Source: Fistulifera solaris (taxonomy: Eukaryota). Taken from it: DNA of 64,000 bases. Below the pieces are notes generated by a model that did no database searches, had not been told where the DNA came from, and saw only the letters and a list, made by a program, of their open reading frames with translations. A program made the translations under genes and the position numbers. The stretch is taken from positions 496,001 to 560,000 of the forward strand of contig AP026155.1 of assembly GCA_030295235.1 (NCBI GenBank), given 5' to 3'. Within the stretch, counting starts at the first letter, position 1, and the number at the start of each line of letters is the position of its first letter. Positions 52,599-64,000 of the stretch are shown here, piece after piece.

Positions 52599-54099
52599 AT
52601 GTCCCGCTCGAATACGGTACGATCCGTGTACATGGCCCGTGTCCGACGAGCTTTTTTTGTTGCGCGTTCATCCCGATCGGTTTCGTTCTCCATCCATACG
52701 ATCGCAACAAGCTCGCTTGGTGCAAGCCTTGTCGAATCGGATGAATCAATCGGATTTTACGGCGTGGCAGCAGCAACAACAGGAAAGTGTTACTCCTACA
52801 TTTTTATTAAATCAAGACGACAACACAACGTATCCCTTTGTTTTGGAAAAGCGCGATGGGTCTTTCTTTCGAACTGAATTACAAATGAATGCCTCTGTGG
52901 ATGTCATTCTTTCTACCATATTGCACGGTTTGAAGCAAGTGGGTGCGTTGCTTCCGGATCCCCCCGAAAGGGCATCCAATACGGAAGACGACGACGACGA
53001 CGACTCGTAGGAACACCACACCCCTTCACGAAACGATGGAGTCACATACGTACAACAATCATCCTAGTCCTTCATTTCATCCGAAAGGACGCAGTTTGTC
53101 CGATTTCTTGTCCAATTTGCAACCCAATGAAATTTCAACACGTCGGAACAGTCGCATCGATGCCCAAGCAGCCGCTTTGGCCGTAAGACGGTTGTATCGA
53201 TTTCAAGCCGTCGATGCAACTTCCTTGGGATGGTCGTCGGCTTGGGTCGCGACCTTGTTTCGAAGATTGCTCGATTTGCATCATTATCATCATCATTCTC
53301 AACCATTTAAAGTCCATTCCTTTTATCCCATTCGTTTGGTATTTTCGAATGCGGCCGCCAAAGTATCGATCCTACAACGCCCGGATCATGCCTTGGATGT
53401 GTATGGTGGTGTATTGCGCTTGAGTCCAGCCAGTACATCGATGCAATGGCTCGAAGCACTCGCGAGTGTGACTTCGGAACGTATCGAGGAAATTCAATAT
53501 CATCAATCCCAAATGTTGGCTTATTCCAAGACGATTCACAGTGTTTTGGGAGTCAAAGTTAAGAAAGGTCATTCGTGTAGCAATGTGGAGTATTTTTCCT
53601 TTCTAGAACGCTTGTCGCATCAATTATTGCCGTTAGAGAATGATGTGTCTCGGTCAACGACACTGCAATTATCGACATCATTCCCTCATTTTTCCAAGAC
53701 ACCGATGGTCATGATGATTGAAGCGTCGACCCTGTGTCGTCGACCGATCGTGACAACGGAAGGCCAACTCCGACTCGGCGCGGCCATGAATACCACGACG
53801 GTACTACGGGCCATGACGGAACTCAGTCCAGTGGCTCGACAACGGCGGGACGAACATGAAGTATTCCGCGAACAACAAAGGAATGGATTCAACAAGCGCA
53901 ATATCAATTGGGATTGCAGCATGTTTATGCGACCGGAACGGTTTCTTTTACTGATTTTAATACAAGTTTGGAACGATTGATAGTCAATGGTCAAGTTGGG
54001 CAACATTTGGCAGGTCATTCGTTGGGAATAACCGGTGCGGATCGTTTTTGTCATTTGGCGGATGATGGATCGTTGGTGATTCCTCACAATTGGGTGTGA
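52599..54099 (+). CDS. TCAIM-like (DUF4460/DUF4461) protein, about 3 frameshifts
   Basis: FLLRVHPDRF near the N-terminus; DGSLVIPHNWV at the C-terminus. Confidence 0.65.
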
Positions 54100-56255: not shown

Positions 56256-58131
56256 ATGAAAAACGAAAAACGTCGCAAGGATCTCACCATGACGCCTTCA
56301 GCAAAGAAAGCCCGGTGCTGGAAAGCCAAACGTTCCTTGCCAACGATACAAACGAATAGCGAAATGAAGGACGACACAGATAGCAGCGATCAGGCTGAAA
56401 AGGTGAAGAAAAAGAAAGACAAGAGGGAAAAGAAGATCAAAAGGAGAAGAAAGAAAAGAAGGTGAAGAAAGACAAGAAGAAAGAACAAAGAGAAAAGATC
56501 GATCACCAGAGAATAAATTTCCTCTCAAAAGACAGCGTTACGAGCCTGAAAGTTCATCTACGGGAGAAGCGTCGACAAGGAATCATATTCAACAAGAAGA
56601 AACAACAGGAGACTCACTGGCGCAATACAATCGCAACAATCCGCGTCCCCGCGCCGAGTCGTCTTCTTTATTAAAACCCGAAGACAAAGACGCCGATCGA
56701 TGTGTGACTCTATTGCTGTTCTATCAATACGTTGAACCCGTCTGGAACGAAGAACAATACCAAGAAGCTTTGCGGATTGCCGAAACATTGGCGACACGCC
56801 ACCAATTGTCGGGTCGTATGCGGGTCGCCCGCGAAGGCTTCAATTGCACGCTCACTTCGAAACACAGAACCGAGATGTACGACTTTTGTCAGTCGTTGCG
56901 CGATTGGAATGACGTCTTCTATAAGACGGAATTCAAATTCACGCACGACTTGCCTTCGGCACAAGCATTTCCGCAACTCAAAGTCATCCCCGTCGTGGAA
57001 TTGGTGCATTACGGTTTGGAAGGACGCAAGGCTCCACCCATTGCGCAATATTCCGGTGTACATTTAGAGCCGACTCACTATCATCAGAAATTGGCAGAAC
57101 CCAACACGGTCGTCATTGATGTTCGGAATCATTACGAAGCGGTGATTGGGCATTTTCAGCCACCGACAGAGGCCGACGGGGAGGACACACCACCCAAGTA
57201 TATTGATCCGAAAATGCGAAAAAGCACTGAATTCCCCGCCTGGTTGGACAATCCAGAGACTCAGAAAGAATTGAAAGGGAAACAAGTCCTTATGTTTTGT
57301 ACAGGAGGAATTCGTTGCGAAAGGGCATCGGCTTTGCTTAAGTACAAGATGGCCACGGATCCAGTGGTCAAAGGTAAGTCAATTGATTGATTTGATTTGG
57401 ACGAAATGATAAAAACTCACAATCCTTTAGACCTCGGTATCAAGGGTGTTTACCAGTTGCAGGGTGGCATTGACAAATACTTTAAAGAATTCCCCGACGG
57501 CGGTTACTGGAAAGGAAAAAATTACGTGTTCGACAAACGCTTTTCTCACGCTCCCCTTTTGAAGGAGGAACATGTACCCGAGGCCAAGCCCGACGCTCCC
57601 ATTTCATCGTGCGAAGCGTGTGGCAAGCCGTGGGACAAGTTTCGCGGAAAGCAAAGGTGTTATACGTGTGGAGTACCGAGTTTGGTGTGTCGAGATTGTT
57701 TGGAAAGCAAATCAAAACCGCGGTGTGATTTGTGTGTAGCGCAGAACATTCGATCGAAGCGGGAATGGAGAGAGAAGGAACAGCAGGAGATTGAAGAATA
57801 CGAAAAACGATCGAAAGCCAGAGGTGTTTTGCTGGCTGCGACGCACAAAGAAAACCAAAATAACGTGACGCGACTCTTTTTGAAGAATATGTGTCGAAAG
57901 AACATGACAGATGCTATTCTATTGGATTTTCTGCCGGGAATCACTCATCTAGTCTGGAAAAATCGAGCTGGAGAGTTTACAGGACAAGGCTGGGTTGAGA
58001 TGGAATCCCCCGAAGCAGCTGCTGCCGCTGTTGCAAGAACGGGTGAAGTTATTTTAGGCCGAGCGTTGCACATAAAGTTTGATCCTCCAGATGGGAAAGA
58101 TGTTTGGCCTCCTCCGCATAGCAAAGTCTAA
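56256..58131 (+). CDS. TrhO/TSTD2-like (UPF0176) rhodanese protein with a C-terminal RRM; intron about 57374-57430, frameshifts in the K-rich 5' part
   Basis: LLFYQYV, GRMRVAREGFNCT, DVRNHYE..IGHF, MFCTGGIRCE, QLQGGIDKY, KNYVFDKR; RRM RLFLKNM...GQGWVEM. Confidence 0.85.
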
Positions 58132-58194
58132 TCAACACAAGAGACGGAATGAATATTGGTGATAAAACGGTAGTAGCGATCGATTTTTGTGCTA

Positions 58195-61100
58195 TCAAAC
58201 AAAATTTCCGTGTGAATCGGACTGTGTACTGCTGGTGGTGTCGATGCTGCTTGTATCATAGGAAAGAAGACGGGTGGCAGGAGCTCCAATCCACACGCTG
58301 TCAGACTCAATAACCTCTCCCGTCATGGCGAGACTCTTCTCGAGAATCATCGAGTTGTCTTCCATGCAGACACCTTGTTGAATTCGTGACCTAGAACGAA
58401 GTGTAACGTTATTGCCCATTTTGATCTTTGAGAGCTCGAAATTTCCTCGAGTATTCAAATGACAAACAATCGAGGCACAGTCGATAACGCAGCGGTCTCC
58501 CATCTCAACAAGATCCGGCTCGGGCATGTAAGGGTCGCCACCTGCAGGGTACAAACAACAGTCACGGCCAGCTTTCAGCCCAAGGGCCCGGAAGAAAAAG
58601 GTCATCAACGGCGAACCCGAAAATAGATCCATGATGTTCATCCGCCCATTGTGTCGCACAGTCGATATGATCTGATACAACTCCCAACGTTGCCCATAGC
58701 TGCAAGTGTCGTAGTTATAGCGCCCTTCCTCTCTTTGCCCCATGAGCCCCCACTTTGATGACACCTCAACGGCAAACCATATCAGGACACTGAACAAATG
58801 AGTGAATACAAAAGTGATCAAGACTACTAGATACATCGAGGACGAAGAAACTTCGGTTCCTGAGTAGTCACGTTCAGACAAGCGCCATCCGAAGAAATAG
58901 CCAGCAGCCAACTGAGTTGCCGCTAATATGGGCCTGTGCGGAAGGTCATGACAGTGAGTCAAAAGCCTGAAAAATAATGCCTAACTCTCGAATGTAATGA
59001 TACTTACATTGTGTGGAGAGCGGCATTCGCAACACGGGTTAAGATTGTGAACAAAATGATCATCCAGGTCGGCCAAACCCAGTAGGGGGCTTCGTTGTTG
59101 TAGACCGCTTTCCCAAATGGTCGCAATGTCGTCTCGTCTCCATGAAACTGCAATTGACTCGGTTTGACGTCAGATGAATTGACCACATAACTTGACGCTT
59201 CTAGGCCTTTTTCGAGAAGGACAGGTTCACCACATCGTGAGCCGAACCAGACACTTTGTTCCGGTAAATATCGTCCAGCCGGACAAACAGAGTTTGATCC
59301 AAGAACTGCATTTTTCCTATTATGCCGCCGGGTAGAACAACTGTGTTGTCAGAAACATTCGCTCCGGCACAAAGGACTATTTTCTCGCACGAGTCTGTTG
59401 TTGTACTTAAAAGACAAGTTCGTGATCCAAACACAACATCATCTCCTATTTCAAGTAAATCGAACTCCCCGTGAAAATCGGTTGATGACCAGGCCAGAAG
59501 ACACGTTTCCCTATCTTTGCACCAAGTAAGCGGTAAAGGATGCTAACTAATTCGTAGTGTCGTCCCAAAATTTCAGTGCAGTCTTGCATACTCTCTCGTG
59601 TGAAAATGTTCGCCGCAAGATGATGGCGAACCACTTCCCATTCAGAGGTAGGATCTCGTTGACCTGGCCTGAATTTTCCAATGATGAATCTTTTCACCAA
59701 AATGGCGAATATCATGTAGACAAGAGGGGCGACAGTAGCGCGGACTACTCGAATTCCGATGAAAAAGGTATTCTTCTCACATCACAGAGCCATTCCATCA
59801 AGTCATTCATCGTATCGAAGGGCTCATCGTGATGCCAAGGCATGGTAATCATCCAGTACAAGATGGCGAAAGCCGGGATATGCGAAATGGTGGTGACAAA
59901 TAATTTGATTGGCCATATTAGAAAGATTTGAGAAGTCAAATAAGGTTCAGGAAGAGCCTCTCGGTTGTATCGCAGGTTGTCAGAATCAGGCGAAGCACCT
60001 ATTTCATAGCTCGACGTAGCCGGACCTAGATGTCTCCCATCTGGTACTTCTGTATTAGGTGCTACAACGGATCTTATGCCAACGCTGGCTTGGTTTCCGA
60101 CCCGCACAGGACCTAGTATCACACAACCGTTATCAACACCGAAAGCTCGAACAGTCGAATACTCGATGGCAGCTTCGTCTCCGACTGTAACTAGGTCATA
60201 TTCAGCTACATCGGCAGCAGAACTGATTCTCGCGTTCTTTCCGATCTTTGCTCCGAGGGCGCGGTAGTAGAAGTTGAGCATCGCCGCATTAGATCCCCAA
60301 ATACCGCGCCCAATCATTTTTCTGAAGATTTCAACTATCCACCAACGAAGATAATATGATCCCCAGATACCAAATCTGCCCGCCTTGTACCTGCCGATGA
60401 CTGCCCATTTTATTAGCACAAAGATCCACGGTGTAACCGTCACCCAGAAGAAATGAAAGAACACTAGAGTGAAGATGATCTTGTACAAGTTGCGTTCCCC
60501 GGGTACAAATAGAAGTATCCACAGAAGACAACGAAAGAAGAGGAAAAATCTTGTCAAGTACCATAGGGGGTACAATACCGTGATGGGAAGAAGTTGAAAT
60601 GATGCCGAGAAAAAGTGTTGCTTGGTTCTATGCGGCTTGGATCAAAGGAAGCACGTGAAAGATTTAGGTCTTTTGAAAAGTGCGAAGAAGCAGCAACAGA
60701 CGCGGGGTCTGTTATTGATCGTGACTGTGGATTTGTTATTTTTTCTCCTCGACGTTCACGGATTACGTCCGAAATACTGAGACAGGTCGGATGATGGAAG
60801 ACTTCGGCTCCGCCGAAAGGAATGTCGTACATTTTCCGGATTCGGCTCGCGAGCTGCGAGGCTAGCATAGAACTCCCTCCTGTATTGAAGAAATTGGAGT
60901 CTGGTGCTGGTAAGCAATCTAAGTCAAGCAATATTTGAAACAGTTCCTGTAATTCTGAGACCAACGAATCCGTCGGACCATGCCCCGAGTTGAATTCTTC
61001 TTGCAAGATGGATACAATCGCATCAGACGGCTGTGGGGGATTCAACTCTGCGGAAGCAACGGGCTCATTTAATTTACACACATGGCTCGGCACGGCATAG

Positions 61101-63101
61101 CCATCGATCAGGTCTTGCGCAACACGGACTACTGTTGGTGGATCTAGATTGTATACATGGGCCACCAATGCTCCGTATTTTGTTGGGTGTGGAACAACAA
61201 CAAGATCTTGATGCTCGCCTTTTATCAGCGCATTTCGAAGTGTCTGTTGCACTTCATGTGCATTGACTGAAACTTGTGCACAGGGTATCGCGACGAGAAC
61301 AGATGTGCCTAGTGGTGGACAGGTGGCCTTAAAGGTTCGCTCGATAGGAAGCATCGAATCATGCAGCTCGGGCAGACTTAATCGCTGTCCTAATTTGACA
61401 CGTAGAATCTTGTTTGTATGCGATTTTGGAAGTGTGTCCATGTAGACTACACACTGAGGCCACTTGGGCGCTGCAAGACGACCATCTCCCAAGTATTTGT
61501 GCAGAGCGGGAAGATCCAAACGGGGTTTATTTGGATATGGTACCATTACCAGTCCAACAACCTCTTGTAACAGGGAATGCTTTGCCGAGAATGCCACACA
61601 AGCGGCCACTAACGGGTGCCCATTAATAGCTTCTTCTACTTCCATGGGACTAATGATTTCGCCGCCGCGGTTGATGACTTCTTTCGCTCGTCCTGTGATG
61701 TAAAGGTATCCATCAGCATCCATGTACCCCAAGTCTCCGGTGTTGAACCACCCTCCTGGAAGAAAGGATACGATTTTCTCCGATGGACATGATTGCAAAG
61801 CCCCGTATCCGCGAAAGAGTGGTTCGGACCTCACACAAATCGGGCCTTCTTTCCCAGCCGCAAGAGGCTTTTGAGTCTTTAAATCCAAAATAGCGAGCTC
61901 AGGACCTACAGCTACCCCACTAGTTCCTGGTTTTTCGAGCTGATAATCCGCTGGAGGTGATGTGATTGGCATACATTCTGTCATGCCGTACGACGGAAGC
62001 ACATTTGCACCGAACGCATTCCGGAGCTGTCGCGCCAGTGATGGCAACAGTCCACCTGCTGCATTGGCGATCATTCGAAGCTTCTTAGGCGACGCGGCTC
62101 CATCAATAAGATAGCCCTCTGATACTCCGGTTTGCAATATGAGCTGATGCATAGTCGGAGCAGCATAGTACCACGTAAAGGACGGCGAGCCATCCTGGAG
62201 AAGTAATTGCCAGAAAAGACCCGGATCAAAGGAAGGGCAGCAAATTACGCATCCACCTGAAAAGATTGGAGAAAACACTTGTCGAATAATACCGCCAACG
62301 TGGAATAAAGGCATTAGGTTGCAGTTTGTATCTTGCGGCGTCAACTTCCATGAGAGCGAGATGCAAGTCGTTGCAACAACAACATCCGCCAACAGATGGG
62401 GAACGAGCTTTTTAGAACCTGTAGTCCCCGATGTAAAGAGAACTAACACTTCATCATTGTGCTGATTCGCTTGAAATCGTTTGTCCGAATACTGATCGCA
62501 CTCTCTTGCTTCCAGACCAAATTTATCTATGCATCGATGTGGCGGCCAAGATAATCGACATGATGGCGCCTCCAATCGGAACAAACCTGCCCACTTGGTA
62601 TCTGGAATGAGTCCAACAAGTGGGATTTTTAGCTTTTGAAATCTTTTGTGAAAGATCGCTGTCTCGCAATCCTATTATAGTATCGGCCCCAGATGTGAAA
62701 AGATCGGCTTCAAGTTCCTGTTCCGCACCAAAGGCATTCAGTGGCACACAACTCGCCCAGGTCGTCGTCACAAGAATCGCGAGTGCTAGTTCTGGTCCGT
62801 TCGGCAAAACGACAGCGATTCGATGACCTCGACCTACCCCAAGACTTCTGAAGACATTTCCACTCATTGTGATGCATTCATGGATTTGTTCCGTCGTAAT
62901 TGGTTTTCGCCCATCAGTCGAGGCAAGCGCAGGCTTGTGCACTCCGAGTGGAAGCGCTGATAGTAAGTCGGGAAAATGAGGAAGTATTTCCTGAGCAACT
63001 TGCCAGCCCGATATGCTTCCATTAGGTTGCAACAAGTGCTGAGATCTCTGAATCAGTGGAGCGAGAGTTAACTCGACCGCTTTTGTATCGGACGATGTCA
63101 T
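58195..63101 (-). CDS. Pls/PosA-like membrane NRPS: adenylation domain, carrier domain and three TM + left-handed beta-helix modules (about 6 frameshifts)
   Basis: LFTSGTTG, MPLFHVGG, SYGMTE, TGDLG..ITGRAKEVINRGGE, LPKSHTNK; carrier FFNTGGSSML; WGSYYLRWW; RALGAKIG, RLLGAKIG and RALGLKAG modules. Confidence 0.85.
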
Positions 63102-63587
63102 TGATTAAATGTAAGTTTACTTTAGAAGGTCTCTCCGTTGCCTATGTGGGGGTACAAGATGAAGAAGAAGACGTTGTTTCAAGAAGATGGAAACAAAAAG
63201 TGCGCAATCGTCGTCTTCGAGAAACGCATGAAAGGATGATCGACGGGCTCCGCCATTGGGGACAATTTTTCCGTTGGGCTCAATTTACCTATGTATTTTG
63301 TGTACAATCACTACAACCTTAATTTTTACTTAAGGATTTACCGAAATTTAGACCTGACGATGCACTAAGTATTTGCTGGTTCGTTGTTGGAAACGGAAAA
63401 GTTGTTAATGAGGTTTCTGGTTTCTAAACAAAGTGTACTGCTACCATATTTACCGATATGTCTTACTGCAATTGGACACGGTGAATGGACAGACCGTTAC
63501 TGAGGCGGTACATACAGCACAGGACGAAGTGGGCAGGGAGACAGGGCAACCAGCAGAAGTTGGCCATCTAAGATAAGTAGTCTAGGT

Positions 63588-63754: not shown

Positions 63755-64000
63755 TTATTTATAGTTCTTCTGCTTCAAAATCGTAATTCGTTCCATCAAT
63801 AAATCAAAATCAATATACGGTTCATAATGATGTATTGCTGCATCCACGCGATGTCTGTCTTCGGCGTTTAGCTTTGCTGTATACCCGTACATGAGCTCGA
63901 GAGACTCGTCCGTTTGAAAGGGCGTTATAAGAACGGGCGGAGCTTTCGGCATGGTGATGACAAAATCGGTGAGCTGATCCGATAGTGGGTAATCTGCACA
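63755..64000 (-). CDS. C-terminal end of a gene entering from beyond the window; resembles the helical tail of Pta N-terminal/DRTGG proteins
   Basis: Open frame to the window edge; YTAKLNAEDRHRVDAAIHHYEPYIDFDLL. Confidence 0.5.
   Translation of the reverse strand, partial: CADYPLSDQLTDFVITMPKAPPVLITPFQTDESLELMYGYTAKLNAEDRHRVDAAIHHYEPYIDFDLLMERITILKQKNYK

Follow-up and report, generated by a model that had tools for sequence, protein, structure and literature searches.

The 64,000-nucleotide window analyzed here (Fistulifera solaris, contig AP026155.1, positions 496,001 to 560,000) carries on its minus strand a gene (58195..63101; ATG at 63101, stop at 58195) encoding, after correction of five indels and removal of one intron, a protein of 1,612 amino acids (aa). 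Sequence comparison suggests, with a probability of about 0.6, that this protein belongs to the polymalate-synthetase family as a single-module membrane-bound enzyme making a polyester of the poly(beta-L-malate) type. All features of this gene given below lie on the minus strand.

Probable relationship to fungal polymalate synthetase

The poly(beta-L-malic acid) synthetase (PMAS) of the black yeast Aureobasidium melanogenum, strain ATCC 62921 (accession QHD40385.1; Wang et al., 2020, PMID 31765748), is reported to produce the polyester polymalic acid. Passages of later papers present it as the product of a 5,049-bp nonribosomal peptide synthetase (NRPS) gene, with adenylation (A)-like, thiolation (T) and condensation (C)-like domains and six membrane regions but lacking a thioesterase (TE), for which a chemistry running from malyl-AMP through malyl-S-enzyme to ester bonds was proposed (PMC9210645, PMC11286673, PMC11905612). 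The diatom protein fits this layout, which is that of an NRPS-like protein of ~1,680 aa. Expression of the fungal PMAS is under calcium signaling, with Crz1 as the fungal regulator. Aureobasidium and Physarum are named as natural polymalate producers in passages of PMC9210645, where the Physarum synthetase is described as unidentified.

The Aureobasidium pullulans member of the family, P0527 (1,690 aa, from a cluster of 126; 1,584-1,700 aa when its four nearest neighbors are included), is very probably the orthologue of PMAS, judging by genus, length and domains, and if this is granted, polymalate is a likely product of the diatom enzyme. The initial annotation had foreseen an unknown homopolymer or acyl-transfer product; an Aureobasidium member that matches the published PMAS in size and domains probably gives at least some indication of the product. 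P0123 (FisN_19Hh246), the protein of the second gene copy in the F. solaris genome, is colinear with P0527 from end to end (557/1661 identical, 34%; A core 52%, tail 33%), and both are closest to one common cluster in the ESM Atlas, the name of which is uninformative. Among the conserved polar columns of the tail, the consensus residue is found in 44/44 in Aureobasidium and in 41/44 in Physarum. At 17/17 chosen pocket positions the diatom protein agrees with both P0527 and P0160 of Physarum polycephalum (1,728 aa). P0160 belongs to the family over its full length and is a candidate Physarum polymalate synthetase.

Adenylation domain, linker and carrier

The AMP-binding families PF00501 and PF13193 were found in the fragments of the gene, followed by a carrier of PF00550. 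The domain scan of seven fragments gave no match to a condensation, thioesterase or reductase family, as the initial annotation had described. The A domain (61379..62984, ~residues 40-575) is of the oxalyl-CoA-synthetase-like type; its three best sequence matches in the PDB and its top fold matches are oxalyl-CoA synthetases, the nearest solved structures being AAE3, LsOCS and Pcs60 (5IE0/5IE2/5IE3, 6QJZ, 8AFF; E 1e-59 to 2e-48, 32-35% identity), in agreement with the oxalate/acyl-CoA-ligase type first read from the motifs VLPNGPE, MPLFHVGG, WYYAAPTMH and INRGGE, all of which are present in the translation. Its P-loop lies at 62417-62437, the pocket helix with the invariant Arg274 at 62279-62314, and the catalytic Lys565 at 61409-61411.

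Conservation was counted on the 426 of 563 collected proteins that have both A domain and tail, a redundant set that includes near-identical cluster members. The near-invariant residues are His268 (422), Gly270 (422), Arg274 (424), Tyr313 (422), Asn347 (424), Cys377 (424), Pro379 (425) and Lys565 (426), and Arg274 is present in 3 of 41 long proteins that have a related A domain and no tail match. From its position in the sequence, six residues past the His, Arg274 would lie at the floor of the acyl pocket, where we place it by presumed analogy with coumarate-CoA ligase.

Between the A and T domains runs a linker of 130 residues, in which the initial annotation had missed a vestigial second A-subdomain of the NRPS A8-A10 type (61004..61291, ~residues 605-700), which is degenerate in the family consensus and has decayed further in the diatom. 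A profile built from 256 linkers matches the A-subdomain of the five Pls-type proteins used for comparison (5/5, E 2e-14 to 5e-11; shuffled controls 0/5), and also that of ordinary NRPS modules and, more weakly, the oxalyl-ligase-like A-subdomains. Together with the A-domain trees, this profile suggests that a grafted A domain probably left the old A-subdomain behind; an oxalyl-CoA-ligase-like A domain would have replaced the amino-acid A core in a Pls-like scaffold, and on the simplest reading the graft would have switched that scaffold from amino acids to a hydroxy acid. Many multi-module NRPSs, P0084, P0354 and P0365 among others, carry oxalyl-CoA-ligase-like A domains, often in the first module, with the AAE3-type Arg-Ser-x-Ser motif kept, and are a possible source pool for the A domain of the family.

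The carrier (60767..60955; PF00550, E 7e-8) has its phosphopantetheine Ser745 at codon 60869-60871, where the initial annotation had placed it (near 60870). This Ser is present in 393 of the 426 family proteins, the motif being undetected in 22, and four matches to PF01648 (phosphopantetheinyl transferase, PPTase) were found in the genome.

Membrane tail and proposed mechanism

The tail consists of three modules, each a helix pair followed by a left-handed beta-helix: module 1 at 60015..60590 (~residues 839-1030), module 2 at 59223..59939 (~residues 1056-1295), which contains three of the five assembly indels, and module 3 at 58264..59069 (~residues 1347-1590). The three modules of membrane helices and hexapeptide repeats read initially from the letters are borne out by TIGR02353, the terminal-domain model of Pls/PosA, which matches 4/5 tail fragments (E 2e-35 to 0.045), and by an AlphaFold model of the P0123 tail (pLDDT 91.5, pTM 0.90; alignment of 60 sequences), in which six long helices form three pairs with a beta-helix after each. 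The count of six comes from this model; a simple hydropathy scan of P0123 gave 5/6. The model agrees with the three beta-helices of the published PosA model, which are packed with three-fold symmetry according to passages of PMC10522769. In structure it is matched best by acyltransferases of the left-handed beta-helix fold (Z up to 13.1, 148 aligned, rmsd 4.2) and not by NRPS condensation domains; the structural matches listed included no experimental structure of a complete Pls-type tail. Trimeric enzymes of that kind (maltose O-acetyltransferase, VCA0836, CatB-type, QdtC) have the fold of each tail module, whereas the diatom tail has three copies per chain and is membrane-anchored and carrier-fed instead of acyl-CoA-fed.

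Tail conservation was counted on 121 non-redundant tails out of 361 with a long match. Asp1253 of module 2 is kept in 121/121, while His1525 (58459-58461) and Glu1505 (58519-58521) of module 3 are each found in 118/121 and in the five Pls-type proteins (5/5), which makes the latter two candidate catalytic residues. Beside His1525 there is a local swap, Thr-Arg in the diatom facing Glu-Asp in 5/5 Pls-type proteins.

In the proposed mechanism, the A domain would use ATP to adenylate a small hydroxy-dicarboxylic acid, for which L-malate is the likeliest candidate and whose free carboxylate may be gripped by Arg274. The acyl group would then be loaded onto the phosphopantetheine of Ser745, the genome having PPTase genes, and the three beta-helices on their six membrane helices, the fold of each part being predicted and the trimer-like packing taken from the PosA model, would act as one pseudo-trimeric acyltransferase. 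This unit would acylate the hydroxyl of either free malate or the chain under construction, with His1525 and Glu1505 as putative catalysts; the cycle would repeat, and release of the chain would need no thioesterase, as has been described for Pls.

Alternative explanations

The initial annotation had assigned the gene to the Pls/PosA type, and in this case a cationic poly(amino acid) would be made, possibly a polyamine-like material for diatom walls. Pls (epsilon-poly-L-lysine) and PosA (delta-poly-L-ornithine) share the A-T-(two helices + beta-helix) x3 layout with no C or TE, as described in passages of PMC10522769 and PMC9205021, and the diatom protein has in common with them the tail His and Glu, a homologous A-subdomain before T and a TIGR02353 match (E 4e-70 for P0123). 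The likeness of the scaffold stands; membership of the type does not, and this explanation is very improbable. TIGR02353 gave 236.8 bits for P0123 and 213-241 bits in 6/6 family proteins, under the cut-off of 423.1, which was exceeded in 0/4 of the bacterial genomes. Asp217 and Glu221 are described as essential in PosA (passages of PMC10522769). The comparison set, five Pls-type proteins from plasmid records, one of them with the Asp217/Met218/Glu221 of PosA, has the alpha-amino Asp in 5/5, against 0/17 aligned family proteins (Val269 in the diatom), and the side-chain Glu is not present, with FHVGG of the diatom opposite FDMSF of the Acinetobacter protein. In both the A-domain and the tail trees the five form a clade apart from the present family, the diatom A domain clustering with oxalyl-CoA-ligase-like domains (support 0.998) and apart from Pls (1.0); identity to the five is 21-25% for the A domain, where the matches are partial, and 22-25% for the tail. 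Compared with Pls/PosA, the diatom protein has an acyl-CoA-ligase-type A domain and is ~280 aa longer, and the predicted family product is an anionic ester, in contrast to a cationic isopeptide. A fusion of an oxalyl-CoA synthetase serving oxalate handling, to which the structural matches of the A domain would lend themselves, is likewise improbable. According to passages of PMC8905533, Ser289 and His319 of AAE3 are conserved among oxalyl-CoA synthetases only; in the diatom they are replaced by Ala349 (375/426) and Pro379 (425/426). The position of AAE3 His216 is Gly in the diatom protein and therefore leaves room for a larger acid. Oxalyl-CoA synthetases are, moreover, stand-alone proteins of ~520 aa with no carrier, whereas the diatom protein has 1,612 aa with PF00550, and its family, unlike them, has the invariant Arg in the pocket helix. 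Oxalate itself has no hydroxyl or amine available for chain growth, which also speaks against this fusion.

A more serious contender, though still an unlikely one, keeps the family and the chemistry and changes the acid or the acceptor: another small hydroxy or dicarboxylic acid could be used, or, in place of homopolymer synthesis, single acyl groups could be passed to an acceptor at the membrane, for instance a lipid, a polysaccharide or a polyamine. The solved relatives of the tail fold acylate sugars and other acceptors, the diatoms form their own clade (15/15, support 1.0), residue 275 is Gln in diatoms and Asn in the fungal and Physarum proteins, and our literature search, which did not cover subscription papers, gave no report of polymalate in diatoms among the papers listed, as judged by title and opening of the abstract. 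Against this, the pocket residues are nearly invariant in 426 proteins from bacteria to fungi and therefore point to one substrate, and the polar tail columns are shared with Aureobasidium and Physarum to the extent given above.

Several observations also weigh against the polymalate synthetase reading itself. The fungal enzyme has not been isolated (passages of PMC9210645), so that the reference mechanism is itself a proposal, and the link between P0527 and PMAS is drawn from genus, length and domains. Two reviews, in the passages concerned, put the six membrane regions of PMAS at the N-terminus, whereas those of the diatom protein are C-terminal; P0527 has 3/4 of its hydrophobic segments after the T domain, at odds with an N-terminal placement. 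Identity to P0527 is only 34%, and the 17 pocket positions compared above were picked by the author from the alignment; beside this set, the diatom and Aureobasidium differ at Gln275/Asn and Ala346/Cys. An overall charge swap of the tail relative to Pls was not supported, the columns specific to the family being balanced (7 basic, 7 acidic). The family is far broader than the known polymalate producers, and many members may therefore act otherwise; the backbone of the A-domain tree between diatoms and fungi lacks resolution, and no donor or transfer is therefore claimed.

Distribution and significance of the family

Used as a query, the A-T part gave 1,178 matches among 7,998 candidates, and among the 120 matches listed the named ones are diatoms, with the exception of one ordinary multi-module NRPS. 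The single diatom clade mentioned above comes from a FastTree analysis of 69 A-domain sequences. The full architecture is encoded at 4/12 prokaryotic loci, in Planctomycetota and Myxococcota genomes (L007:4323-9089, L008:4512-9158, L009:4407-8894, L006:4416-8774), and the neighborhoods of these four loci show no obvious partner gene in common. Queries with one bacterial and one Hortaea member added further members from Novosphingobium, Kitasatospora, chytrids, Mucoromycota, Basidiomycota and Ascomycota, as well as Coccomyxa, Mesostigma, Epipyxis and Physarum. By sequence, this is a family separate from Pls, found in diatoms and other algae, in fungi, in Physarum and in some bacteria; the A-domain phylogeny proposed with the initial annotation thus set it apart from the Pls type with which that annotation had grouped it.

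Polymalate is known from few fungi and from Physarum. We tentatively suggest, with somewhat less confidence than for the enzyme type, that pennate and centric diatoms use this enzyme to produce poly(beta-L-malate) or another polyanionic polyester related to it, and that the family also includes the long-sought synthetase of Physarum (P0160) as well as the first candidates from bacteria; as predicted from sequence, diatoms may make an acidic polymer similar to polymalic acid. If true, a dominant phytoplankton group would have an unrecognized carbon sink and a calcium- and metal-binding polymer, and a major algal group would secrete or store a polyanion that routine polysaccharide analyses overlook. 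This could matter for the flux of malate, for metal binding and for the export of organic carbon, and a biopolymer with medical uses would gain a photosynthetic host. The family signature permits direct tests. The enzyme type being already known, the family is widened and no new system is defined; its presence across diatoms is new relative to the literature searched, which, with the coverage stated above, gave nothing on poly-L-lysine synthetase in diatoms or on TIGR02353, and no paper on a diatom NRPS with adenylation and transmembrane parts that, judged by title, was about this gene.

Gene structure, copies and integrity

The gene is real and intact and encodes one protein of 1,612 residues, all five frameshifts being assembly errors. 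It corresponds to FisN_19Lh246 (P0121; 98-100% per block, overlaps at junctions included) plus the last exon: the public model, of 1,367 aa, stops at the donor of a 74-nt GT-AG intron (59007-58934) that splits the Met1367 codon, and thus is without most of module 3. Excision of this intron, which explains a break near 59000 that is not a frameshift, restores the frame of P0123, and the last exon is open in the window down to the stop codon. P0001, P0002 and P0124 also end at the intron donor. No joint at the intron was found in the contigs of four sequencing runs, which, being contigs, are silent on the transcription of the gene.

A pseudogene or several separate genes might be proposed because the reading frame is broken five times in the window, with one break in common with the C38 copy, which has two. 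The breaks are, however, 1-2-base losses in or beside short homopolymer runs (59310, 59466, 59761, 60609-60611 and 62633-62636), and at 5/5 sites the missing bases are present at full depth in the contigs of run X1, which may come from the source strain and is therefore an assembly check and not an independent population; run X3, from a separate study, has insertions at 4/5. The real frameshifts that the initial annotation had held could refute its single-gene reading are therefore not borne out, and the gene is one, as it had supposed. The database proteins FisN_19Lh246 and FisN_19Hh246, which are independent annotations, read across the indel sites, and the transcriptome-derived homologues checked are single open reading frames (ORFs) with both halves (9/9; 1,557-1,808 aa). 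Moreover, dN/dS between the two copies is 0.078 (eight blocks free of frameshifts), the mark of a gene under purifying selection, so that a pseudogene or a set of separate genes is hardly credible. Since the homopolymer indels differ between the copies, other broken genes in the assembly may be artifacts.

The genome has two copies of the gene, in the window and on contig C38 (91% identical in DNA), the latter being the locus matched by P0123, which is annotated at 1,612 aa. Copies and flanks (C38:543150-548100 and window 57500-63460) are 91% identical, which fits two subgenomes and not alleles.

Neighboring genes

The neighboring genes in the window look unrelated, and no functional clue was obtained from them. 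A convergent gene (56407-58131, plus strand) encodes a UPF0176/rhodanese protein with a Cys-rich C-terminus and a weak RRM match; it has an apparent intron near 57375-57430, and its stop lies 64 bases from that of the synthetase gene. The next gene upstream (L042:756-2053, minus strand, reaching into the window at 63755-64000) is one that we take to be the N-terminal P-loop part of a phosphate acetyltransferase. About 4-7 kb upstream, a P-type ATPase with a DKTGTLT motif (L042:3752-6590, minus strand), presumably SERCA-like by its motifs, was also found; its proximity is probably a coincidence, even though the fungal enzyme is calcium-regulated. Farther along the window, a clostripain-family gene (PF03415; 49801-52284, plus strand) in three overlapping frames, whose breaks may be introns or assembly indels, ends with a Pro/Thr-rich stretch and a hydrophobic tail, and a gene for a DUF4461 protein lies at 52934-53980 (plus strand; E 5e-10).

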